This document shows positions 1-55,950 of a stretch of 64,000 nt of DNA, in pieces. Position 1 is the first letter of the stretch, and each line of letters begins with the position of its first letter. Origin of the DNA: Wickerhamiella versatilis (lineage: Eukaryota); contig JAQOWU010000007.1 in NCBI GenBank assembly GCA_030867685.1, positions 1,550,001 through 1,614,000 of the forward strand, in the 5' to 3' direction. The position numbers were made by a program, and so were the translations under genes. The notes under the pieces are model-generated. The model was given only the letters and a program-made list of their open reading frames with translations. It was not told the origin of the DNA and did not search any database.

Positions 1-412
1 ATGGCGTGGCATATGAGTACATCCCTGGTTGCTGCGACGCATATGGTTGCGGCATGGTTGGTCCAGCTGCCTGCGAGGCCAGCCCTCCTGGAGCAGCTCC
101 ATTCGAACTGTTTGTTGCACCATCCTGGGATTCTTGGCCTGGCATAGGATAATAGTATGAAGGCTGAAACTGGGAATAGGGAGCAGCATAGTACTGTTGA
201 GCTACAGCAGCTTGCTGTGCCGCCAGTGCTTGGGCCTGGGCTGCCGAAGGGGGTATTACCGGCTGATGCTGATGCGAGGGCGATATATTGCTCCCCGGGG
301 TGCCATCTGCGGAAACTGTCGCAGTCGACTGTGGAGTCTGCGTTTGACGCGCCATTCCGTACGTTCCAGTGGACGCACCACTGTTCATTTGAGATGGCGG
401 ATAAGGATACAT
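1..412 (-). CDS. 5' part of a gene running off the window edge; Gln/Pro/Tyr/Ala-rich N-terminus typical of a transcription factor or RNA-binding protein
   Basis: Manual translation from ATG at 412 gives an open frame to the edge: MYPYPPSQMNSGASTGTYGMARQTQTPQ...AQAQALAAQQAAVAQQYYAAPYSQFQPSYYYPMPGQ...QPYASQQPGMYSYATP. Not in the ORF track because it has no stop in the window. Confidence 0.75.
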   Translation of the reverse strand, partial: MYPYPPSQMNSGASTGTYGMARQTQTPQSTATVSADGTPGSNISPSHQHQPVIPPSAAQAQALAAQQAAVAQQYYAAPYSQFQPSYYYPMPGQESQDGATNSSNGAAPGGLASQAAGPTMPQPYASQQPGMYSYATP

Positions 413-8074: not shown

Positions 8075-8995
8075 ATGTCGAAGGTTCCTGACTTTACGTT
8101 GAACACAGGTGCAAAAATCCCCGCTATTGGGCTGGGTACCTGGGAAGCTCCTCCAGGACAGGTAGGCCAAGCTGTATATCACGCTCTAAAGGTTGGCTAT
8201 CGTCATATTGACGGTGCAGCGATCTACGGCAACGAGACCGAGGTTGGCGAGGGAATCAAGAAGGCTATTGATGAAGGCATCCTTAAGCGTGATGAGCTTT
8301 TCGTGACAACAAAACTTTGGTTGCAGGATTTCCGCAAGGTGCCAGAGGCTCTTGACACGTCGCTCAAGAAGCTTGGTCTTGACTATGTCGATTTGTATTT
8401 GATGCATTGGCCAATTGCTCTTGATGCTGAAGGTAAACCCGACCCATCTATTACCTTCAATGAGGTGTGGGCCAGCATGGAGCAGCTTCCCAAGGAAAAG
8501 ACCCGGGCCATTGGAATCTCAAACTTCACTATTGCCAACACCAAGAAGCTCCTTGCCACCGCAAAGGTCACTCCGGCCGTGAATCAAGTCGAGTTGCATG
8601 TCAATATGCCCCAGCCCAGGCTTCTCGAATTCTTGCACAATGCTAAGTACGGGTTCCCTGCTCATGATGGTAAGCCGATCCTTGCTGAGGCTTACTCTCC
8701 CCTCGCAAGAGGTAATCTTGAAAATCCCATCGTCAAAAAGGTCGCTGAGAAGCATAAGACTTCGCCGGCCACTGTTGTTCTCTCATGGGGTATTGCACGG
8801 GGATGCGTAGTTCTGCCTAAATCAGTTACGCCCTCTCGTATCGATAGCAACTTGGAGTATGTGGCCCTTGACAGCGAGGACGTTAAGGAAATCACGGGCA
8901 TCACCAATGGTGGTAAGGAGCATTTGGCACGCCACAGTGAGTTCTTAATCGAGAAGGGTGTTGATGTCTTTAATAACAATGAAGACTCTCACTAA
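8075..8995 (+). CDS. NADPH-dependent aldo-keto reductase (Gcy1/Ypr1 family)
   Basis: IPAIGLGTW, GYRHIDGAAIYGNE, LFVTTKLW, DLYLMHWP, IGISNF, NQVELH, LPKSVTPSRI. Confidence 0.95.
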   Translation: MSKVPDFTLNTGAKIPAIGLGTWEAPPGQVGQAVYHALKVGYRHIDGAAIYGNETEVGEGIKKAIDEGILKRDELFVTTKLWLQDFRKVPEALDTSLKKLGLDYVDLYLMHWPIALDAEGKPDPSITFNEVWASMEQLPKEKTRAIGISNFTIANTKKLLATAKVTPAVNQVELHVNMPQPRLLEFLHNAKYGFPAHDGKPILAEAYSPLARGNLENPIVKKVAEKHKTSPATVVLSWGIARGCVVLPKSVTPSRIDSNLEYVALDSEDVKEITGITNGGKEHLARHSEFLIEKGVDVFNNNEDSH

Positions 8996-10043
8996 GGTAT
9001 CTAGAACAGTTTTCTAATTATTTCTACAGCTGCTCTTAAGATTAGTACGTGTGATGAAGGGTTGTATTGTATAGAACCTAATGCCAAGAGAGAGAGAGAG
9101 AACAGGGCTATATAATAACATGAGAAAGGACCAATTGCCAAACGGGTGCCTCAGCAGCTGAGGGTAAATATAGTTTCTTCGGCTGAGTTTGTTCGAAGAA
9201 GCATCTAAGTGATGTACGTTGTAGCATTGATAGGCTCAGAAGTTACTTTGTTTTAGCAACAGCACATGTCTCATGTAAGGCAGAACGTTGAAGAGCATGC
9301 TCTTTACATTCCCCAGAAGAACCTAAAATAATCTGCAACTCTCAATTTTAAATATTGCAAATATCCACTGAAGTAGGCTTAATCGTTTGAGACCTGCTGC
9401 CACAATATGCGCGCTTGACAAATTTCATCACGAAGATTGAGTGATTGCTTCCTTGTATGCAGAAGCAACTCAATTCCACGTAAAGCCTTTTCAAGCTCTG
9501 CTTGGCAGTCTTGAAGTATTTTTGCGCGCTGTGTTTCGAATACCATGGCCGGCATGTTTGATAGACAACTTGTGCTTACTTAGGGAAAACTCGATGAAAA
9601 GCAAAAAGTTTCTCAGCAAGTTTACGAGGGTGAGCGCAAATTACAAGCCGCACTTACTATGCGGGCTATGGCAACCTTAGAATTCTTGTCATTACAATGG
9701 TACCACTCTACTTTCTAACGAGAAATGTTTTATGTGATATTATCTCATATATACTTTTAAACGAATTAGCCAGCATAACATGATAATCCCGCTTTGCTTT
9801 GTTTTTTTTGAAGTTGCTTGCTATATCTGTAGCTGTGACAGGAAATGCACACCCCTCAATATCTGGGTTGCTCGTCTTCAGTTAAAATAGGTCGTAGGCC
9901 GGTCAGGAGGCTTTCCTCATGCTATTGGGAGGTTTAAAGTATAATGACATGTGAATCATGTTGACAATGCCAGCGCAATCCTTGCTCTTCTTGCAGGGGC
10001 TACTTGAGGTGCACTGACCAGTTTGTCTAAGTAAGCTAATGGG

Positions 10044-32504: not shown

Positions 32505-35500
32505 CTAGATAATTAGCACAAACATGCTCATAATTATAGCGAGTAGGATATGCCTGCCCGTCTTAGAGGCTTTATTGGATAACATCGGCACTGAATCGGT
32601 CTGTGAAACAGAAGGGGCATCTGGGATAGCGTTGCTCTCAAACTGTGGTGCATTGTCGGACCGTGATTTGATCGAAGCAGTTGCAACTTCGCTGGTCGGT
32701 GCCGAGTTGAGATATTGAGAATTTATGGTAGCCTCTTGTATGGATCCTGACATCGACTCAGAAGCCTTTGGTTGTTCTAATAGTGTCGAGGAGCCATGTA
32801 GAACCATATAGGTGAGCTCACTTGTAGGACATGTAGTAGATGGAGACATAGTCGCAATAGTAACTAACTCAGGTCCTGTCAAGCTTCCGCGCGTAACAGT
32901 ACCATATGTGTAAGATTCCGATGAAGTTTCTGTCGATCCTGTAGGTTCACTTTGTGAATTAGAGGCTGTGATCGAAGGTGTAGAAACTTCGGTATTCTCA
33001 GGAGAATTTATTCCCGACGTTGATCCCGCACTAGCAGGATATTGAGGAGATGTGGGACTACTCACAGGGACTGTAGGTGTTTCCGTACCAGTTTGAGATT
33101 CAGATTGACCACCACACGGGATATCCGAAGTGACAGTCACAATATCACTGCCAGTGGATGTGGTGATAATGGTACTGCATATCTGTCCAGAAGTTGGTCC
33201 TGCAGCTCCAGGCCCATTACTAGGAGCCTCGGTAGGCTCCGAGCCGCTAGATACCGGTGCACTGGCTGTCGGGCTTGCCGCAGTCGATGGTTGCGGTTTC
33301 TGTGACAATCCACAGGGTACTGAAGCTGTGGTAGTAACAGTGATATTACCACTCAAGGAGGTGATAACCGTAGAGCATCCACTCACTGGTGTTGACGAAG
33401 CCAACGCAGATGATACTGGGCTGCTGGAAACTTCGACACCCGTTCCCGAACCACTAGATGCCGGGCCATTATAGGTTGTCTCATTCGATGCTGGACTAGT
33501 GAAAGCTGGACCGCTAGACTCCGGCACACTTAGAGATGGGCCGCTAGCTGAACCAGCAAGAGACGGGCCACTACGTGCGGAGCCACTGGGTGAGGGTGAT
33601 GGACCACTAGAGGCTTGGCCACTGGGTGTCGCGCCACTAGGTACCGGGGTACTTCCTGTGGGTGTTTGGGGCTGTTGTCGTGACTCACATGGAACGGCAG
33701 AAGTGATAGTAACTGTGCTGCCACCGCTCGAAGTAGTAAAAACCGTGCTGCACCCACCTTCTGGTGGTGAAGATGCTGATCCACTAGGTCCGGAGCCACT
33801 AGGTCCGGAGCCACTAGGCGCTGATCCACTGGGTGCTGATCCACTGGGTGCTGATCCACTAGGTGCTGGTCCACTAGTTTCACTAGATTCAGAGCCACTT
33901 GGTGCTGGTCCACTGGGTGCTGGTCCACTAGGTGCCGAGCCACTGGGTGTCGCGCCACTAGGTACCGGGGTACTTCCTGTGGGTGCTTGGGGCTGTTGTT
34001 GTGACTCACATGGAACAGCAGAAGTGATAGTAACTGTGCTGCCACCGCTCGAAGTAGTAAAAACCGTGCTGCACCCACCTTCTGGTGGTGAAGATGCTGA
34101 TCCACTAGGTCCGGAGCCACTAGGTGCTGATCCACTGGGTGCTGATCCACTAGGTGCTGGTCCACTAGTTTCACTGGATTCAGAGCCACTGGGTGCTGAT
34201 CCACTGGGTGCTGGTCCGCTAGGTGCTGGTCTGCTAGATTCACTGGGCTCGGAGCCACTTGGCGCTGGTCCGCTAGGTGCTGGGCCACTAGATGCTGGGC
34301 CACTTGGTGCTGGACCGCTAGAAGCTGGGCTATTTCCTGTAGTGGCACTGCATGGAACTGTGAAAGTTTGTGTGATAACTGAAGAAGCCTCTGATACTAC
34401 CACTGTAGATGTAGAGACTATTGTTGTCTCGCATTCACTAGCGGTAGCTTGCGGGACAGTCCACTGGCAGGTTGTGGTATATTCTGTTTGGTGGCATGTC
34501 TCATGGGTGCAAGGAACTGTCACGGTAGTTATAGCAGTCGTATGCGGTCCTGTCGAGGCAATACTAGGAGATGTCAAAGTTGGGAGCGAGGATGACCCAG
34601 TTGCAGCGCTAGGAGACTCGTTACCCGGACCAGAGCTTACAGGTTCAGAATGCGCAGAAGACGAATATGTTGAGGGTGATACTCTCGGACCGGTCCCTGA
34701 CGGTTGAGGTGTTTGTTGCGATTCGCATGGTACAGCTGAAGTAGTGGTAACAATTCCACTACCATCTGAAGTAGTGATAACAGTACTACAGCCTCTTTCT
34801 GGAGTTGAAGCTACCGATCCACTTGGAGCGGGACCACTAGATGCTGGAGCACTCGGTGCTGAGCCACTGGGTGCCGCGCTACCCCCGTTAGATGTCTGGG
34901 GCTGTTGTGACTCGCATGGAACAGCAGAAGTGATAGTAACGATGCTATCACCGCTCGAAGTAGTAAGAATCGTGCTGCACCCACCTTCTGGTGGTGACGA
35001 TGCTGAACCACTAGGTGCTGGCCCACTAGGTGCTGATCCACTGGGTGCTGGTCCACTGGGTGCTGGTCCACTGGGTGCTGGTCCACTGGGTGCTGGTCCA
35101 CTGGGTGCTGGTCCACTGGGTGCTGGTCCACTGGGTGCCGAGCCACTGGGTGCTGGTCCACTGGGTGCCGAGCCACTGGGTGCTGGTCCACTGGGTGCCG
35201 AGCCACTGGGTGCTGGTCCACTGGGTGCCGAGCCACTGGGTGCTGGTCCACTGGGTGCCGAGCCACTGGGTGCTGGTCCGCTAGATTCACTGGGCTCGGA
35301 GCCACTTGGCGCTGGTCCGCTAGGTGCTGGTCCGCTAGGTGCTGGTCCGCTAGGTGCTGGGACACTAGATGCTGGGCCACTTGGTGCTGGGACACTAGAT
35401 GCTACGATAGTAGGTGCTGGGCCGCTAGAAGCTGGGCTATTTCCTGTAGTGGCACTGCATGGAACTGTGAAAGTTTGTGAGATGACTGAAGAGGCCTCTG

Positions 35501-38500
35501 ATACTACTACTGTAGATGTAGAGACTATTGTTGTCTCGCATTCACTAGCAGTAGCTTGCGGGACAGTCCACTGGCATGTTGTGGTATATTCTGTTTGGTG
35601 ACACGTCTCATGGGTGCACGGAACTGTCACGGTAGTTATAGCAGTCGTATGCGGTCCTGTCGAGACAATGCTAGGAGATGTCAAAGTTGGGAGCGAGGAC
35701 GACCCAGTTGCAGCGCTTGGGGACTCGTTACCCGGACCAGTGGATGCAGAACTAGTCGGTACTGGACCACTTGATTCTGGCTCACTGGGTGCTGAGCCAC
35801 TGGGTACCAGGCTGCCCTCGTTAGATGCCTGGGGCTGTTGTGACTCACATGGAACAGCAGAGGTGATAGTAACTGTGCTGTCACCGCTCAAAGTGGTGAG
35901 AACAGTGCTGCACCCACCTTCTGGTGGTGACGATGCTGAACCACTAGGTGCCGAGCCACTGGGTGCTGATCCACTGGGTGCTGATCCACTAGGTACTGAT
36001 CCACTGGGTGCTGGTCCACTAGGTGCTGGCCCACTAGGTGCTGATCCACTGGGTACTGGCCCACTGGGTGTCGGGCTGCCTCCGTTAGATGTCTGAGGCT
36101 GTTCTGACTCGCATGGAACAGCCGAAGTGATAGTAACGACACTATTACCGCTCGAAGTAGTAAGAACCGTGCTGCACCCACCTTCTGGTGTTGAAGATGC
36201 TGAACTGCTAGGTGCTGGCCCACTAGGTGCTGATCCACTGGGTGCTGGTCCACTAGGCGCCGAGCCACTAGGTGTTGGTCCACTGGGTGCTGGTCCACTA
36301 GGTGCTGGTCCACTGGGTGCTGGTCCACTAGGCGCCGAGCCACTAGGTGTTGGTCCACTGGGTGCTGGCCCACTAGGTGCTGATCCACTGGGTGCTGGTC
36401 CACTAGGTGCTGGTCCACTGGGTGCTGGTCCACTGGGTGCTGATCCACTGGGTGCTGATCCACTAGGCGCCGAGCCACTAGGTGCTGGTCCACTAGGTGC
36501 TGGTCCACTAGGTGCTGGCCCACTAGGTGCTAATCCACTGGGTGCTGGTCCACTGGGTGCTGGTCCACTGGGTGCCGAGCCACTGGGTGCTGGTCCACTG
36601 GGTGCTGGTCCACTGGGTGCCGAGCCACTGGGTGCTGGTCCACTAGGCGCCGAGCCACTGGGTGCCGAGCCACTGGGTGCTTGTCCACTGGGTGTCGGGC
36701 TGCCCCCGTTAGATGTCTGAGGCTGTTCTGACTCGCATGGAACAGCCGAAGTGATAGTAACGATGCTATTACCGCTCGAAGTAGTAAGAACCGTGCTGCA
36801 CCCACCTTCTGGTGTTGAAGATGCTGAACTGCTAGGTGCTGGCCCACTAGGTGCTGATCCACTGGGTGCTGATCCACTGGGTGCTGGTCCACTGGGTGCC
36901 GAGCCACTGGGTGCTGGTCCACTAGGTACTGATCCACTGGGTGCTGGTCCACTAGGTGCTGGCCCACTAGGTGCTGATCCACTGGGTGCTGATCCACTAG
37001 GCGCCGAGCCACTAGGTGCTGGTCCACTAGGTGCTGGTCCACTAGGTGCTGGCCCACTGGGTGCTGGCCCACTGGGTGTCGGGCTGCCCCCGTTAGATGT
37101 CTGAGGCTGTTCTGACTCGCATGGAACAGCCGAAGTGATAGTAACGATGCTATTACCGCTCGAAGTAGTAAGAACCGTGCTGCACCCACCTTCTGGTGTT
37201 GAAGATGCTGAACTGCTAGGTGCTGGCCCACTAGGTGCTGATCCACTGGGTGCTGATCCACTGGGTGCTGGTCCACTGGGTGCCGAGCCACTGGGTGCTG
37301 GTCCACTAGGCGCCGAGCCACTGGGTGCCGAGCCACTGGGTGCTTGTCCACTGGGTGCTGAGCCGTTAGATGCTGGTCCACTAGGTGCTGAGCCACTAGG
37401 TGATGGACTGTTACCACTAGATGACTCTGGCTGCTGTGATTCACATGGGACGGCAGAAGTGATAGTAACGGTGCTACCACCACTAGTTGTAGTAATTACT
37501 GTGCTGCATCCACTTTCTGGAGTTGATGGCGCTGGGCCTGTAGGCATCGGGCCGTTAGAAGCTGCGCTATTCCCTGTAGTGGCACTGCATGGAACTGTGA
37601 AAGTTTGTGAGATGACTGAAGAGGCCTCTGATACTACTACTGTAGATGTAGAGACTATTGTTGTCTCGCATTCACTAGCGGTAGCTTGCGGGACAGTCCA
37701 CTGGCAGGTTGTGGTATATTCTGTTTGGTGACACGTCTCATGGGTGCAAGGAACTGTCACGGTAGTTATAGCAGTCGTATGCGGTCCTGTCGAAACAATG
37801 CTGGTAGGCGTCAAAGTTTGGACAGAGGATAATCCAGTTTCAGTGGTGGGAGACTCGTTACCCGGACCAGTCGCAGAATTCAGAGATTGCTCAGAAGGCG
37901 AATATGATGAGGATGGTACTCTTGGACCGGCTCCTGACGTCTGAGGGCTTTGTTGCGATTCGCATGGTACAGCTGAAGTAGTGGTTACAATTCCATTACC
38001 ATCTGATGTAGTTATAACAGTATTACAGCCTCCTTCTGGTGTTGGAGATGCTGATCCGCTAGGTGCTGAGCCGCTAGGTGCTGGTCCGCTAGGTGCTGGT
38101 CCGCTCGGTGCTCCGCTCGGTGCTGGTCCACTAGTTGCTGATCCACTAGGTGCTGGTCCACTAGGAGACGGGGAAATTGATGCACTGGGTGCTATACCGC
38201 TAGAGTTTGGTCCATTTGGAGTGGAGCCGGCAGGCACTGAACTAGTTTCTGAAAACGGAGTTGGTTGTTGTGACTCACATGGAACAGCTGAAGTAGTGGT
38301 AATCACTTCGCTTCCACTGGAGATAGTAATTACAGTACTGCACTCTTCCTTGGGACTCGATGAGACTAATGTACTGGGATACTGGCCACTTGGCGTAGGT
38401 AAGCTTGGTGCCCGAACACTAGATTCGATGCTGCTAGGTACCAGTGGGGTCCCTGGTGACGTTGGTTGCTGAGATTCACATGGAACAACAGTTGTAATGG

Positions 38501-41500
38501 TTATTATAGCGCCATTGGCATTTGAGGTAGTAATAACAGTATTGCATCCTGACCCTGGAGTCGAGGATGCCTTGCCCGGACCATTATTGGAAGATGTAAG
38601 CCCATTAGCCGCTGATCCACTAGGTGTTTCAGGTATTGATGAGAGCGGAACATTGTTCGATGTCGGCTTAGCGGACTGTGATTGACATGGAATGGTTGAT
38701 GTGATTGTTTCAGTCCTATCACCTCTCGAAGTTGTGATTATAGTACTGCAAACTTCCTCTGATACAGACGAAGGTGTTGAAATAATTCTACTCTCTGATG
38801 GCGATTCTGATTTTGATAATGGTGTAGTGCCACTAGTTGCAGGATAAAGTGTGGTCACTAGGTAGCTTCTTCCTGAACATACCTCTGGATGAGAACAAGG
38901 AAGTGTAGAAACTACGTATGAAGGCTGTGTAGCTGATTCACTGGCTGGGCTGCTACTGATCGACGGATTAACGCCTGAGTTGCCCACCCCAGGAGTTACA
39001 GGCTGACTTTCAAGACTAGTCGCAGATGATGATCCTGAGTTAGCTGGTCCGCTTCCTGGCTGACCTCTAGGACTAGTCACAGATGGCGTGCCTGAGTTGG
39101 CTGGCCCACTTCCAGACCCTGGCTGGGATTCCGAGCCACTAGCTTCTGGGCCACTAGCCTCTGGCTGGGAGTTGGTAGGAGCTACACCACCTGATGAAGG
39201 GCATGGTCCAGCTGTTGTTATTGTAACAAGCTCACTGCCGCTCTGAGTTGTAAGAACCGTAGAGCACACAACAGTCGTGACTGGCCCAGGTTGAGTCTCA
39301 GGACTAGCCTCAGATGGCGATCCTGAGTTAGCTGGTCCGCTTCCTGGCTGACTTTCAGGACTAGTCTCTGATGGCGATCCTGAGTTGGTTGGTCCGCTTC
39401 CAGATCCTGGCTGGGAGTTGGTAGGAGCTACACCACCTGATGAAGGGCACGGTCCAGCTGTTGTTATTGTAACAAGCTCACTGCCGCTCTGAGTTGTAAG
39501 AACCGTGGAACACACAACAGTTGTGACTGGTCCAGGTTGAGTCTCAGGACTAGTCACAGATGGTTTGCCTGAGTTAGCTGGTCCGCCTCCAGGCTGACTT
39601 TCAGGGCTAGTCACAGATGGCGTGCCTGAGTTGGCTGGCCCACTTCCAGACCCTGGCTGAGTTCCCGGGCCACTAGCCTCTGGCTGGGAGTTGGTAGGGA
39701 CTATACTACCTGATGTAGGGCATGGTCCAGCTGTTGTTATTGTAACAAGTTCACTACCGCTCTGAGTTGTAAGAACCGTGGAACACACAACAGTTGTGAC
39801 TGGTCCAGGTTGAGTCTCAGGACTAGTCACAGATGGTGTGCCTGAGTTAGCTGGTCCGCCTCCTGGCTGACTTTCGGGACTAGTCACAGATGGCGTGCCT
39901 GAGTTGGCTGGCCCACTTCCAGACCCTGGCTGAGTTCCCGGGCCACTAGCCTCTGGCTGGGAGTTGGTAGGGACTATACTACCTGATGTAGGGCATGGTC
40001 CAGCTGTTGTTATTGTAACAAGCTCACTGCCGCTCTGAGTTGTAAGAACCGTAGAGCACACAACAGTCGTGACTGGCCCAGGTTGAGTCTCAGGGCTATT
40101 CACGGATGGTGAGCCTGAGTTAGCTGGTCCGCTTCCTGGCTGACTTTCAGGATTAGTCTCAGATGGCGATCCTGAGTTAGTTGGTCCGCTTCCAGGCTGA
40201 CTTTCAGGGCTAGTCACAGATGGCGTGCCTGAGTTGGCTGGCCCACTTCCAGACCCTGGCTGAGTTTCCGGGCCACTAGCCTCTGGCTGAGAGTTGGCAG
40301 GGACTATACTACCTGATGTAGGGCATGGTCCAGCTGTTGTTATTGTAACAAGCTCACTACCGCTCTGAGTTGTAAGAACCGTAGAGCACACAACAGTCGT
40401 AACTGGCCCAGGTTGAGTTTCAGAACCAGTAACAGATGGCGTGCCCGAACCATTTTCAGACTCGAAGCTAGCTGGTCCGCTTGCAGAACTTTGCTGGGTT
40501 CTGGAGCCACCAGCTCCTTGCTGAGAGCTGGTAGGAGCAGTTATGCCACTCCCCTCAGTAGCTGAGCTAACTAGGGAAAATGTTGAGAGCGTACCAGACG
40601 CTTCAGGTACCGTAGAGGCACAAGCAACCCGAGTTGCTGTTACAGAGACTGGTACGGTTATCTCAGAAATCGTTATTGTAGACCTAAGCACAGAAGAAGT
40701 CGAACAGTCACCAGATGCAGTCGGTGTTGGTACGGTGAAGAATAACGTTGTTGATAGCTCAGTCTTGGGATTGCATCTCTCCTCGTTGCAAGTCACAGTA
40801 ACTGTTGTAGTTATTGTTGTGGCGGGTTTGGTGGTTTCATACGAAGGACTCTCGGAACCACTCGGAGGCCCCCCAGACGGTGGTGACCTCGTAATAGTAT
40901 CTGAGGGGGCTGCAGTGATACTTGGATAAATCGTGCTTATTATATAGCTGCGTCCTGAACAAATTTCGGCATGTGAACACGGTACAGATATGACAGTATA
41001 GCTGGGGGAAACTGAATTTGATTCCTGTGGTACATTAGTAGAGCTTTCACCTGCAAATCTGCTTGTTCCAGCTGTGCCTGGTGTTGGGCTAGCCGGGTTG
41101 CTCGTGCCAGGTCCTTCCGAGGCCTCAGGCGTAGGGGTTTCATTTCCAGATCCATTCGTTACGGTTGAGCTTGCTGTAATTCTGCCAGATTCGCCTGTGT
41201 TAGAGCCTTCAGAGACTCCCGAAATGGACCCTATACCTGTAGAGCTACTCGCTATCGCTGCCGGTGATGTAGATTCAGCTGGGTTGCCCGTGCTAGATGC
41301 CTCTGATGCACCAGCAGTTGGTCCTTTACCTGAAGAGCCACTCACCAAGGCTGTGCCTGATTTTGGTGCGGTTGAACCACCTGTATTTGATTCCCCTGGT
41401 GATGGAATACTATTACCTGATTCAGAGGTACTACTGCCTTCAGCTCCTCCTAATGTAGATGACCCCAGTGAACCAGTACCAGTTGGAGCACAAAGGACAT

Positions 41501-44500
41501 CAGTGGCTGTCACGACAACTTCCTTAGAGTTACTTGAGATGGTTACTGTGGTTGAAAGTACACTCTCTGTAGCACACATTCCCGTATCTGTAGGCTTTGG
41601 CACAGTAAATTCGCAAACAGTTGTGTAGGTAGTAACTACCCCCGCGGGACACTTAGTGCAAGTTACTGTGACCGTGGTCGTGATCGTCGACTCGACACCT
41701 CCGGAAGTTGGTGTGGCTGCACCACTAATTTCGCTTGTGGCACTATTTCCTTGATCACTAGTCCGGGGTATACCGCTGCTTCCCTCTGGGACAGATGCTT
41801 CTGACCCGAAAGCGTCGCTACCTCCACTAGTTTTTGGTACACCACTACTGCCTGCAGGGCCAGGTGTACCCGATCCATTAGCATTGTTCGTACCGCTAGT
41901 TGGTGCTGCGCCACTATTGCCCGCTGGACTAGATGGTCCTGATCCTGCTGCTCCGGAAGATACTGTAGCATTGTTTGCAACACTGGTTTGTGCAGTACCG
42001 CTACTGCCGCCTGCAAGGTCAGTTGTTCCCGATCCTGCTGCTCCTGAAGAAATAGTAGCGTTGCTCGCACTGGTTTGTGATGTATCACTACCGACGAAAG
42101 CACTTGTTGGTGCACAAAGGACATCAGTGGCTGTCACTACAACTTCCTTAGAGTTACTTGAGACGGTTACTGTGGTCGAAAGTACACTCTCTGTAGCACA
42201 CATTCCCGTATCTGTAGGCTTCGGCACAGTAAATTCACAAACAGTTGTGTAGGTAGTAACTACACCTGCCGGACACTTAGTGCAAGGCACAGTGACCGTG
42301 GTCGTAATCGTAGACTCGGCCCCCGAGTACGTTGGGGTACCTGTAGCCATGGAAGCAGCACTATTTGTACCACTGCTTTCTGATACACCTCTGCTACCGC
42401 TTCCAGAAACCACTGAGGGGGAGAAGGTATTTTTTTCTGCTCTGCTAGTTATTGGTGTATTATTTCCATTGCTGGAAATGATCTGGGATCCACCTGCCCC
42501 AGAAGACGCTATAGCATTGTTCGTAGCGTTAGTTTGTGCCGCGCCACTATTGCCCGCTGGACCAGATGTTCTCGCTGCTGCTCCGGAAGATACTGTAGCA
42601 TTGTTTGCAACACTGGTTTGTGCTGCAGTACTACTGCCTGCAGGGCCAGGTGTACCCGATCCACTAGCATTGTTCGTACCGCTAGTTTGTGCCGCACCAC
42701 TATTACCCGCTGGACCAGATGGTTCTGATACTGCTGCTCCGGAAGATACTGTAGCATTGTTTGCAACACTGGTTTGTGCGGCACCGCTACTGCCTGCAGG
42801 GCCAGATATTCTCGCTGCTGCTCCGGAAGATACTGTAGCATTGTTTGCAACACTGGTTTGTGCGGTACCGCTACTGCCGCCCGCAAGGTCAGTGGTTCCC
42901 GATCCTGCTGCTCCTGAAGAAATAGTAGCATTGTTCACACTGGTTTGTGATGTATCACTACCGACGAAAGCACTTGTTGGTGCGCAAAGAACATCAGTGG
43001 CTGTCACGACAACTTCCTTAGAGTTACTTGAGACGGTTACTGTGGTCGAAAGTACACTCTCTGTAGCACACATTCCCGTAGCTGTAGGCTTCGGCACAGT
43101 AAATTCACAAACAGTTGTGTAGGTTGTAACTACACCCGCCGAGCACTTAGTGCATGGTATAGTAACAGTGGTCGTAATCGTAGACTCGGCACCTGAGGAT
43201 GTTGGAATCACTGAACCTGGGTATCCCGAATAAATTGTACCATTGGTCGAACTACTTCCAGTAATCACAGCTGAGCTACCAGTTTCACCAGATACGGTGC
43301 CATTGCCAGCGCTAGTTTTTGGAGTGTATATCGATGAGTTTCCAGCCTTATTTGTCGCAGGCAATGTCACTGTGAATGTTAAAGGAGTAGTACCACCAGG
43401 ATATGTTATAACATCCGTTTGCGTAATAGTACTCAGAGGTGCATTACTAGATGCTGTTGGAAGAATAGCCCATACTGTGGTTGTATATTGAGGTGCAGAG
43501 CATTTTGACAGTGTACAAGGGATTGTTATCAAACTCGTCCATGTGCTGCCATCTGAAATAGAGCTGGTGAGCCCACTTATCGGTAAAGATTTACCTGGCC
43601 CTTCCGCAGCACCACTGTCTGTCGCAGCACTTTCTGAAGTGCTTTGATTCCCACTTGCTGAATTGTAGTACGAGGCCAAAGAGGCGGGATAACCGGTAGT
43701 CTGTCCAGGTATAGTAGAGTTTGATGCCCTAGGAGGGAGGCTGTTGGAGCCTACAGCACTAGCTTTGTTTCCATTTGATGGTCCCTGAGACTTTGTTTCA
43801 ATCACAGATGTGGCATTCTTTGTATTTGGTAAATATGAAGGTACTGATGATGGATTTGCTGAAGGAGAAATAGATTCAACACTATTGCCACGAAGGCTGG
43901 CAGAGTGTAATTTTGACCCAGTGGCTGAGCTAGAATTTGAACTCAATTCGGCGCTAGTAGTTGGTAATGTCGTGTCACGTGTGTTATTTGACTGGGATTT
44001 CGGTGAGACAACAGAGCTTCCCGGCTGGATGATAGTGGCTTTCTGAGATGAAGGCGAAGAGATACTAGTATTAAAGCTTGTTATTGGCGCAGCAGATTTT
44101 CTCGATGTCTGCCTAATACCTGATAAGCTCTTATCACTTTCGAAAATGCTGGACCCTGTCAATGACGCATTCAAAGTACTACTTTGATGATGATTAGTCT
44201 GAGAAGATACCACCAACGATGAACTTAACAAAGGATTTTGCGGTACACTAGTTGAATTCACTGGCGAACTGGTAGATACTAGTGTCGCACGAACTGTGCT
44301 TGCATTCTCACTAGGCACCGGTACAGGGATATGAATTGATGGTATTGATGCATGCGATGAAAGACCTGTAGAGTTATTTCTTATCGGCGATAGAGAACTA
44401 CTCGCTTCACTGCTCAAGGCAGAGATAGACGAATTGTCTGTCTTTGTTACCTTGCCAGATGTAAGGGTGCTTGTATTATCACTAGTCACCGGTAAGGGAA

Positions 44501-53895: not shown

Positions 53896-54783
53896 CTAAT
53901 TTTCGTTCTTAGCCTCGGCAATACGCTTCTCGATCTTCTCCTGCTTCTGAGCCTTCGTGAGCTTGGGCACCTTACGCTTCAGAGTCTCAGCCTTGTATTT
54001 CGCGACATCCTTCTCAGTGGGTTTTGGCGAAGGATCCTCACGGATGGCCTCATGTGCACCGGAGTAGATATCTTCAACACCGTCTGCCTCAATACCATCA
54101 TCAAGATATGACTGGAATACCTGGCGGTAACGCTCTTCATCATCATCAGCAAGCTCCTCCATGTATTCAGCAATGTGGCCACCAACAATGTACTTCTGGA
54201 GAGACTCAGCATCAAGCTCCTCAGTCTCGATGTCGAAGCCGGGGAAGCGCTTAGCAGAGTGAGGAATGTAGAGACCACCGTCAGAGGCACCCTTGAGGGC
54301 ACCGAACACACGGGCACCACAGGTAGTGCGCTGCAAACCAATGTCAAGGAAGACCTTGAAAGGGCGAGGGGCATCATCAACAGCTTCGGTAAGAGAGTAT
54401 TCACCGGAGTGCTCCTCATCACCCTTGTAAGTTTCATCGAGACCGAGCTTCTGAAGAGCACGGCGAGCAATTAGAAGACCAGTTGCGTATGCAGCAGACC
54501 AGTTGGTGAGACCATGCTTGATACCGTAACGGGGCAACTCGTGAGAGTAGGCCGAAGTGAAGACGACATCACCTTGAATTTGAGAACTGACAATCTGGCA
54601 GATGATGTCCTTGTTGGTGAAACGCACAACCAACCGGTACTTAGGGGTGGCATACTTAGCCTTGTGCTGCGTTACGAGACGCTTACGGGCATAGTAATCG
54701 GTTTTGCCCTCACGACGACGACGGAATGGCGTCTGGTACCGAGAAAGGTATGTACTCGACTTCTGACTCTTTTCGAAAGGCAT
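53896..54783 (-). CDS. RPL5: 60S ribosomal protein uL18 (L5)
   Basis: RRRREGKTDYYARKRL, KYRLVVRFTNKDI, AYSHELPRYG, RVFGALKGASDGG. Confidence 0.99.
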   Translation of the reverse strand: MPFEKSQKSSTYLSRYQTPFRRRREGKTDYYARKRLVTQHKAKYATPKYRLVVRFTNKDIICQIVSSQIQGDVVFTSAYSHELPRYGIKHGLTNWSAAYATGLLIARRALQKLGLDETYKGDEEHSGEYSLTEAVDDAPRPFKVFLDIGLQRTTCGARVFGALKGASDGGLYIPHSAKRFPGFDIETEELDAESLQKYIVGGHIAEYMEELADDDEERYRQVFQSYLDDGIEADGVEDIYSGAHEAIREDPSPKPTEKDVAKYKAETLKRKVPKLTKAQKQEKIEKRIAEAKNEN

Positions 54784-54935
54784 GGCGACTTTCCAATGCT
54801 GCTGTCGAGCTTAGACGGAGTGGGTGAGTGATTAGATCACACCCTGAGCCCTATATCACATAATACAAAAAATGTATACTAAAGCATGACTCAACATATC
54901 ACACAAGTTATTCCGCATACGTTTTAATACAATAG

Positions 54936-55029
54936 GTACGTTGATGATTACCATGGTCCGTGTTTCTGAGGAGGATTAAGACCCCTTCACTTGAAGTGAA
55001 ACCCATTTTACATGAACTGAGTCTAACAG
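54936..55029 (+). other. Predicted spliceosomal intron of a non-coding host transcript, hosting U18
   Basis: AG|GTACGT donor at 54936; CTAAC branch at 55023-55027; AG at 55028-55029 (alternative CAG at 55030-55032). Confidence 0.65.
54937..55023 (+). ncRNA. snR18: Box C/D snoRNA U18 (snR18/SNORD18 homologue), guide for 2'-O-methylation of LSU rRNA
   Basis: Box C TGATGA 54942-54947. Guide TGGTCCGTGTTT 54954-54965 is complementary to the conserved LSU rRNA sequence GAAACACGGACCA. Box D' CTGA 54966-54969, hairpin TTCAC/GTGAA 54986-55000, box D CTGA 55017-55020. Confidence 0.9.
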
Positions 55030-55239
55030 CAGAAAATCCCTTACCACTATTGAGTAGGTCTATGTGCTAGCTGTTAGCATGATATAGTGCTATTGATTAA
55101 GTGTCATAATAATCTAGACAGTTTTAATATTTCAAAACTTCGACAAGTTCTTCATTATAGGTGTCGCCTCGACGTGTACATCCGTTGAACCTGCCTTGGA
55201 AACTGACGTAAAAAACCACCATATTGCTCTGTGAGCCTA

Positions 55240-55950
55240 TTAGGATTCAATGAATCGCGCGAAAGCATGACCGAAAAGCGGTCCATGGTGATCAGAAGCA
55301 GCAGCTCTTTTCTTGGCGTCAAGAAGGTCTTGTTCTTTCAATACGAGATCGCAAAATAAAGACGTCACGTCATTGGAGAACTCTGGATGACCTTGAACAC
55401 ATAAGTATCTGCCAGGTGACCAGTAGGCTTGTATGGGCCCACCTTCCGTTGAGGCCAGCAACTGAGCTCCTTCAGGTAGCTCGAAAACCTGATCAGAGTG
55501 CATCTGGTTGAGAAGTACCGGTTCAAGACAAGCCAGTTCAGTGAATACCTTTTTTCCCGCATCTGTGAGCCTAACTGGAGTTGTGCTGACCTCCCATCCT
55601 TGGGTGCTGCGGCCAATAGGTGCACCCAAAGCGCGGGCGATAAGCTGATGCCCGTAGCAAACTCCAATGACCTTTACGGATCCCATTTTTGCTTCAAGAG
55701 CATTTCGGACGAAATCTAATAACTGTATAGTCCAATCATTGTTATCAAATGCATCGCTGCGGCTTCCACTTATGAGCAGTGTATCACCATCCTTTGGTTG
55801 AGGATAGACGCGCTGGTTGCGAACGTCCCAAGTCAAAATTTCGCCTTTATATCCTCCCTCTCGTACAAGACGCGTATACAGGGTGTCATAGTCGCCATCT
55901 ATTGGGAGCACATTATCGGGGACGCTATCTGCCTTCAGGATATGAAGCAT
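55240..55950 (-). CDS. Class I glutamine amidotransferase-like protein (YLR126C family)
   Basis: LISGSRSDAF, nucleophile elbow IGVCYGHQLIARALG, QMHSDQV, QGHPEF (Cys-His-Glu triad). Confidence 0.92.
   Translation of the reverse strand: MLHILKADSVPDNVLPIDGDYDTLYTRLVREGGYKGEILTWDVRNQRVYPQPKDGDTLLISGSRSDAFDNNDWTIQLLDFVRNALEAKMGSVKVIGVCYGHQLIARALGAPIGRSTQGWEVSTTPVRLTDAGKKVFTELACLEPVLLNQMHSDQVFELPEGAQLLASTEGGPIQAYWSPGRYLCVQGHPEFSNDVTSLFCDLVLKEQDLLDAKKRAAASDHHGPLFGHAFARFIES

Follow-up and report, generated by a model that had tools for sequence, protein, structure and literature searches.

The Locus and Its Host Transcript

The DNA analyzed here is a 64-kb window from Wickerhamiella versatilis (contig JAQOWU010000007.1); coordinates refer to this window unless another contig is named, and those of the motifs were read off its sequence. 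On the left of the locus lies the intron-less coding sequence of RPL5/uL18 (minus strand, 53899-54783), a single ORF with homologues annotated as 60S ribosomal protein L5 and bearing the Pfam domains PF17144 and PF14204, the best named relatives being those of Wickerhamiella sorbophila (78% identity) and Sugiyamaella lignohabitans (76%). On the right, a class-I glutamine amidotransferase-like gene (minus strand, 55243-55950; Pfam GATase, E 5.8e-15) is oriented convergently. Between these two genes, and divergent from RPL5, the plus strand produces a capped, single-intron, non-coding transcript of about 200 nt, and its intron (97 nt, GT..AG, plus strand, 54936-55032) carries a sequence that we identify below as a U18 box C/D snoRNA.

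Transcription was followed with RNA-seq reads placed on 54650-55350, from two random-primed runs (X15 and X16) and two poly(A) runs (X18 and X19) bearing the same species label; the reads derive from a diverged strain of the species, with 95-99% identity. Reads that break at a constant oligonucleotide, which we take to be the template-switch adaptor and to mark RNA 5' ends, place the main start of the host at 54910 (58 reads in X18 and 20 in X19) and a minor one at 54896 (5 reads in X18). The same adaptor on the minus strand provides an internal control for this start, as it marks the RPL5 mRNA 5' ends at 54783, 54786, 54797 and 54798 (218, 242, 124 and 39 reads in X18, respectively). The RPL5 leaders are unusually short, these 5' ends lying 0-15 nt upstream of the ATG. 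The divergent start sites of the two transcripts are 112-127 bp apart, and an unstranded TATAT motif (54852-54856) surrounds the midpoint of 54798 and 54910 (54854); this motif is a candidate core for a promoter which RPL5 and the U18 host would share. Within the RPL5 coding sequence, the random-primed runs have a stack of about 350 fragment ends in each orientation at 54765, a pile-up which may come from strain differences or from a library effect.

The first exon of the host is 26 nt long (54910-54935, plus strand), being bounded by the adaptor-tagged starts and by the splice junction at 54935. The second exon (55033-55119, plus strand, about 60-90 nt) was delimited by read depth and by right-hand read termini, which accumulate at 55119 (8 in X18 and 10 in X19) and at 55090 (9 in X19) and represent candidate 3' ends; since plus-strand coverage trails towards about 55200, the 3' end is tentative. 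The ATGs found in the spliced exons reach stops after two codons and the exons contain no ORF, as read from the sequence, which is why we consider the host to be non-coding. With a sense-strand U18 inside a spliced intron and exons devoid of an ORF, the locus has the composition of an intron-encoded snoRNA in a non-coding host.

Identity and Structure of the SnoRNA

No part of the window matches an Rfam family at the gathering thresholds. When matches were reported by E-value, SNORD18 (RF00093) was the sole family found in the window, with a score of 30.8 bits against a cut-off of 41 bits. This score has to be read beside those of five fungal U18s used as controls (four hosted by EF-1beta and one, L060, in a different host), which reach 29, 31.2, 32.9, 37 and 41.8 bits, four of the five thus also falling below the cut-off. 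The window match covers the full model, from position 1 to position 71, and spans 54936-55024, or intron nucleotides 1-89; match and intron thus share their first nucleotide, and the last 8 nt of the intron lie beyond the match. The initial annotation had recognized U18 from its letters and proposed an Infernal/Rfam search for SNORD18; this search recovers it, full length and under the gathering cut-off.

An alignment of the window sequence with 11 fungal U18 sequences from metagenome contigs (12 in total) agrees with this identification. On the plus strand, box C (TGATGA, 54942-54947), which fits the SNORD18 model, the D' guide, box D' (CTGA, 54966-54969), which the model match also contains, and box D (CTGA, 55017-55020), close to which the model match ends, are invariant in 12 of 12 sequences. 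The guide TGGTCCGTGTTT (54954-54965, plus strand) has as its predicted target the A in AAAC-A-CGGACC of the LSU rRNA; its columns are invariant, and the string GGUCCGUGUUU directly before box D' is the same as in the SNORD18 consensus and in all 11 relatives. The aligned U18s also share a TTAAGAC loop, a C'-like TGAAG and a AAACCCAT stretch. The C'-like box of the window (TGAAGT, 54992-54997, plus strand) is degenerate and was read by eye; it aligns with TGAAGA of the relatives.

Between D' and C', the segment 54970-54988 (plus strand) forms an internal hairpin in which 54970-74 would pair with 54984-88, leaving TTAAGAC in the loop. Four pairs of this stem (alignment columns 44-47/57-60) are paired in 100% of the cells and three of the four present changes on both sides, including an A-U of the window that replaces a C-G. 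The covariation score was reached by none of 500 shuffles, and controls in which the stem was slid along the alignment scored lower. A second hairpin, present before box D in the relatives, is missing from the window U18, and the predicted fold of the entire intron (-17.4 kcal/mol, z 0.28) is no better than that of shuffled sequences. As for the terminal stem, the annotation had proposed that A54938/C54939 pair with G55021/T55022. Infernal draws the same pairing, flanked on the outside by a U-C mismatch and a G-U; conservation does not accompany it, as only 25% of the cells are paired in the alignment, and it amounts to two Watson-Crick pairs. Together, the model match, the invariant boxes and guide and the covarying hairpin identify the element, at the level of sequence, as the U18 (SNORD18/snR18) box C/D methylation guide of a Dipodascales-type budding yeast, full-length and of the fungal type.

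According to PMC2780460, the U18 of Neurospora crassa exists as two copies (Nc CD46A/B), which are intronic, 89 nt long, and provided with a D' guide for 26S-Am635; the window match, also of 89 nt and intronic, resembles them in both respects.

Arrangement of the Splice Signals and Evidence for Splicing

The splice signals lie at the very edges of the snoRNA. The 5' splice site GTACGT (54936-54941, plus strand), known from the sequence and the junction reads, doubles in the SNORD18 match as the predicted 5' leader of U18 and abuts box C with a spacer of 0 nt. On the other side, box D is followed by a GT (55021-55022) and then, 2 nt past the box, by the branch-site consensus CTAAC (55023-55027, with 55026 as the presumed branch A), an AG directly after it (55028-55029) and a CAG (55030-55032), all on the plus strand. 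The motifs announced from the sequence were all found where the initial annotation had placed them, GTACGT against box C and CTAAC 2 nt beyond box D. The complete pattern that it formulated occurs once in the window and in none of 300 dinucleotide-preserving shuffles.

Splicing is directly documented by the two poly(A) runs, which contain the same single junction: it joins 54935 to 55033, skips 97 nt with GT..AG ends and removes 54936-55032 (the aligner reports it as "from 54933 to 55031, skips 97, GT..AG (cut +2)"). It is supported by 62 reads, namely 44 reads with 23 start places in X18 and 18 reads with 12 start places in X19, and 16 further X19 reads, aligned from 55031, carry the tail of exon 1 as their unaligned head. 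These exon-exon reads establish a U2-type GT-AG intron. Two junctions had been proposed, from 54935 to 55033 or to 55030; the first is the one observed, and the second, a 94-nt alternative using the AG right after CTAAC, is absent from the junctions at a threshold of 2%. The picture of a U18 lying between directly adjoining splice signals is therefore upheld by motifs and junctions and has to be amended at the acceptor, since the AG that adjoins the branch motif is bypassed in favor of the CAG 3 nt further on, giving an intron of 97 nt. The random-primed runs, with a depth of about 6, contain unspliced reads and no junction, and provide evidence neither way.

Splicing of the host is partial. 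Binned read depth in the intron and in the first bin of exon 2 is 74 versus 117 in X18 and 52 versus 83 in X19, which means that, across the acceptor, about 60% of the poly(A)+ molecules retain the intron and about 40% are spliced at steady state. This ratio indicates that splicing is inefficient at steady state and that another route may feed U18. The unspliced share fits an interference between snoRNP and spliceosome, and it fits equally well a decay of the spliced product or a parallel route that does not depend on splicing.

The reads, coming from another strain, also inform on constraint. Between the two strains, the 97-nt intron shows no substitution, whereas 239 flanking transcribed nucleotides contain nine (at 54909 and from 55052 to 55194) as well as one 3-nt insertion (at 55209). 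The exons thus differ by about 4% and the intron by 0; at the rate of the flanks, the absence of any change in 97 nt has by our own arithmetic a probability of about 0.02, for this one strain pair. An invariant intron between changed flanks suggests, as far as a single strain pair can do so, that the exons drift and that the whole intron is held, including its splice signals.

Comparison with Other U18 Loci

To compare this packing with that of other U18 genes, metagenome contigs were scanned for the string made of box C and the guide with D', which yielded at least 119 loci. From at least 137 matches, 92 unique loci were kept after dropping duplicates and those with less than 150 nt of sequence before the match or 260 nt after it. 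Nine fungal contigs have their U18 in an intron of EF-1beta, the exons ending in ..SYI(V/A/T)G and resuming in ..SQADV; on one of them (L056), the acidic region of EF-1beta (E 1.1e-9) and the EF1_GNE domain (E 6.6e-28) are recognized in the flanking exons. In these nine loci, the donor hexamer and box C are 47-131 nt apart, the first branch-like motif, by a crude call, lies 22-137 nt past box D, and the introns measure 205-348 nt versus 97 nt in the window. Among the matches listed, a donor-like hexamer lies no more than 2 nt from box C in 2 of the 92 unique loci (L017 and L103), one (L081) has a branch-like motif with an AG close behind box D, and none is tightly packed on both sides. L017 and L103, where the hexamer is 1 nt from box C, were rejected as tight introns: they belong to the same tandem snoRNA cluster and have no acceptor near.

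The initial annotation had also set the locus against characterized intronic C/D snoRNAs, which normally lie tens of nt from the branch point; the packing is indeed much tighter than in the other U18 loci and than the fungal and mammalian spacings published in PMC2780460 and PMC10557570. In Neurospora, the distance of intronic C/D snoRNAs to the 5' splice site is mainly 41-60 nt (PMC2780460), in contrast to 0 nt here. Keyword searches of open-access text brought up no described snoRNA whose boxes abut the splice signals; an intron cut down to a snoRNA and its splice signals is thus without example in the 92 sampled loci and in what these searches retrieved. A loose regular expression for such a class, applied to 119 of the metagenome loci (646,950 bases), gave 7 distinct matches, and the only one containing the U18 guide (L009, plant-like, with a 9-nt spacer) was judged to be due to chance. 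In a BLAST comparison of these 119 loci with the window, none had more in common with it than the snoRNA itself.

Several of these contigs are of interest in their own right. L081 carries at 187-338 (plus strand) a U18 in what appears to be a multi-intron non-coding host of another organism: its box D (318-321) lies 6 nt before TATAAC-AG-CAG, with the same TAACAGCAG at its end as the window, about 49 nt separate the donor from box C, and the next intron seemingly holds another box C. In L060 (2581-2682, minus strand), a fungal U18 occupies an intron of about 184 nt whose flanking exons are unlike EF-1beta, which constitutes another change of host. L017, L084 and L103, and likewise L092 and L108, contain tandem clusters of U18-like snoRNAs in which neighboring copies have an altered guide AAGTCCGTGTTTCGTCTGA; these clusters look like polycistronic arrays from eukaryotes.

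Relation to Known Systems

The closest known system is the EF-1beta (EFB1) intron that hosts snR18/U18 in Saccharomyces cerevisiae and in other ascomycetes (PMC8609340, PMC3879985). The guide, the boxes, the internal hairpin and the intronic position on the sense strand are alike; the difference lies in a protein-coding host and in tens of nucleotides on either side of the snoRNA within the longer introns of the nine contigs, versus a non-coding host and spacers of 0 and 2 nt in the window.

Non-coding snoRNA hosts are known in fungi, and the window locus resembles those of the vertebrate UHG type and the clusters of Schizosaccharomyces pombe, Candida and Neurospora by its poorly conserved exons without ORF, by one snoRNA per intron and by an expression tied to ribosomal protein genes (PMC3596301, PMC4138321, PMC5033589). 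It differs from the clusters in being a single-intron mini-gene of about 200 nt. The Candida clusters shrink their exons down to 1 nt, whereas the U18 locus shrinks the spacers of its intron.

Mirtrons offer an analogy, and an analogy only: there too, the ends of a small RNA filling a short intron are set by splicing and not by a dedicated nuclease. They are, however, hairpins passed to Dicer and belong to another class of RNA, and the ends of U18 are here a prediction from the model match. Finally, the stable snoRNA lariats of vertebrates (PMC8609340) share with the proposed intermediate the presence of a snoRNA within a lariat; the branch motif of the window is, in contrast, a consensus one and the stability of its lariat is hypothetical. 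The intron-encoded U18, the non-coding fungal hosts of snoRNAs and the movement of snoRNAs between hosts were thus already known, and what sets the window locus apart from them is the extreme packing.

A Proposed Mechanism for the Production of U18

Experiments in yeast reportedly showed that the position of a snoRNA in its intron matters and that the dependence on debranching rises as introns shrink. The usual route for an intronic snoRNA goes from splicing to debranching by Dbr1 and then to 5' and 3' trimming, and in mammals splicing is coupled with C/D snoRNP assembly by AQR, bound about 50 nt upstream of the branch (PMC10557570). In Fusarium, deletion of dbr1 lowers the level of U18 and its lariat accumulates (PMC9606315). 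Extrapolating from the splicing, Dbr1, trimming and exosome pathway of PMC10557570 and from the Dbr1 dependence of Fusarium U18 in PMC9606315, we propose a mechanism for the window locus. The first splicing step would cut at 54936, precisely the first nucleotide of the U18 model match. The lariat bond formed between G54936 and A55026 would lie 6 nt outside box C and 5 nt outside box D, and could bring the two boxes close to each other with no need of the stem that flanks them elsewhere. Debranching would then deliver a 5' end needing little or no trimming, with a 3' tail of about 8-12 nt left for the exosome. The snoRNA would also use the donor hexamer as its terminal leader and the GU preceding the branch motif as its trailer, and splicing would take the place of the cap-removing cleavage and of the long exonucleolytic trimming used elsewhere.

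It is probable, in our judgment, that the locus works along these general lines: with U18 of a Dipodascales-type yeast residing in a minimal 97-nt intron of a tiny non-coding Pol II transcript, divergent from RPL5, splicing would replace the cap-removing cleavage and long trimming. A stricter version would make U18 the snoRNA counterpart of a mirtron, in which the donor hexamer is the mature leader, the first splicing step sets the final 5' end, the 2'-5' bond replaces the terminal or external stem missing from these fungal U18s, snoRNP assembly depends geometrically on splicing, and the C at donor position +4 and the GU are kept for both machines. The two features named last presumably depart from the usual consensus of budding yeasts, and they are the bases paired with each other in the predicted terminal stem; we hold this stricter version to be tentative and on balance doubtful.

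Alternative Explanations

One other explanation concerns the history of the locus. U18 may sit in an evolutionary intermediate, either an old snoRNA intron being whittled towards the loss of splicing or an independent U18 gene with newly gained splice signals, so that its packing would be transient. A Science paper of 2010 is reported to have described the loss of introns around yeast snoRNAs through decay of the splice signals, and splicing of the window locus is partial. The widespread host of U18 being the EF-1beta intron (PMC8609340), the window locus must have changed host, snoRNA mobility between hosts is documented (PMC8476143), and L081 illustrates another host that is not EF-1beta, tight on the 3' side alone. 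Against a transient state stands the whole intron, free of substitutions between the two strains. As this explanation is silent on how the RNA is produced at present, it is compatible with the main one; we regard it as possible, with the balance tilted against it.

Splicing could also be a side event in what is an independent snoRNA gene. U18 would then be made mainly from the unspliced transcript (capped, polyadenylated or terminated) by endo- and exonuclease trimming, as most budding-yeast snoRNAs are, with little contribution from the splice signals. The transcript does start only 26 nt upstream of the snoRNA, about 60% of the poly(A)+ molecules are unspliced and all the reads of X15 and X16 are so. 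However, junction reads were obtained in both poly(A) samples, a capped leader of 26 nt would be too short for the hairpin needed by the known cap-removing cleavage, and donor, branch and acceptor are located exactly at the edges of the snoRNA, a combination produced by none of the 300 shuffles. The splice signals are moreover unchanged in the second strain while the exons vary. Because of this exact placement and this invariance of the splice signals, the independent gene is weakened, and we consider it unlikely.

The splicing-dependent production favored above could also end differently, if the excised intron persisted as a stable lariat or circle in the manner of slb-snoRNAs, the snoRNP proteins blocking debranching from a distance of 5-6 nt to the branch. 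The geometry alone and the existence of stable snoRNA-bearing lariats in vertebrates (PMC8609340) speak in its favor. The vertebrate cases are nevertheless linked to atypical C branch points (PMC11028025), in contrast to the consensus CTAAC of the window, lariat forms are reported to be inactive as guides (PMC8609340), and no back-joined reads were listed, although poly(A) libraries would not contain them; such a persistence is improbable.

Lastly, a redundant or decaying paralogue of U18, with the working copy elsewhere, for example in an EF-1beta intron, would account for the sub-threshold Rfam score and for the missing 3' hairpin, and N. crassa does possess two copies (PMC2780460), but neither the boxes nor the 12-nt guide are damaged, a compensatory change maintains the internal stem, the locus is transcribed, its intron does not differ between the two strains and four of the five compared fungal U18s also score below the cut-off, so that this is very improbable indeed.

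Implications for the Spacing of Intronic SnoRNAs

On the view drawn from work in yeast and in mammals, the splice signals have to lie tens of nucleotides away from an intronic box C/D snoRNA. Set against this rule (PMC10557570, PMC2780460), the U18 locus constitutes a natural case of near-zero spacing that is still spliced; its packing is moderately surprising to a specialist and provides a natural test of the rule. It lends itself directly to testing two points, the sharing of one substrate between the spliceosome and snoRNP assembly and the definition of a snoRNA end by splicing alone. With about 200 nt and a first exon of 26 nt, it also illustrates to what small size a snoRNA host gene can shrink, and it shows U18 leaving its ancient EF-1beta host. 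Loci of this kind escape gene finders and the Rfam cut-off alike, and they would form a class if the same design recurs in further snoRNAs of this compact yeast lineage.

Related Motifs in the Window

In the 64-kb window, a looser version of the full pattern finds the U18 site as its sole match. Its 3' half alone occurs twice versus 1.03 expected, and the single motifs are not enriched in the window (CTAACAG, 4 versus 8.7 expected; GTACGT, 11 versus 14.7). A scan of the window for introns bridging ORFs returned mostly false in-frame matches inside long ORFs and gave no usable intron consensus. Its recurring false calls included "introns" at about 34500-43600 (minus strand), where a very long ORF of several thousand codons has a repeated unit with GTGGGC...AGCTAAC.

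A second copy of the 5' motif, GTACGT-G-TGATGA, is present at 9045-9057 (plus strand), 50 nt past the stop of an aldo-keto-reductase-like ORF (8075-8995). It is followed by a CTGA-GT at 9183-9188, with no CTAAC..AG close by and no Rfam match. This motif is expected 0.09 times per window, which gives a chance of about 9% for one extra copy, and it may be a chance occurrence or an unrecognized snoRNA.
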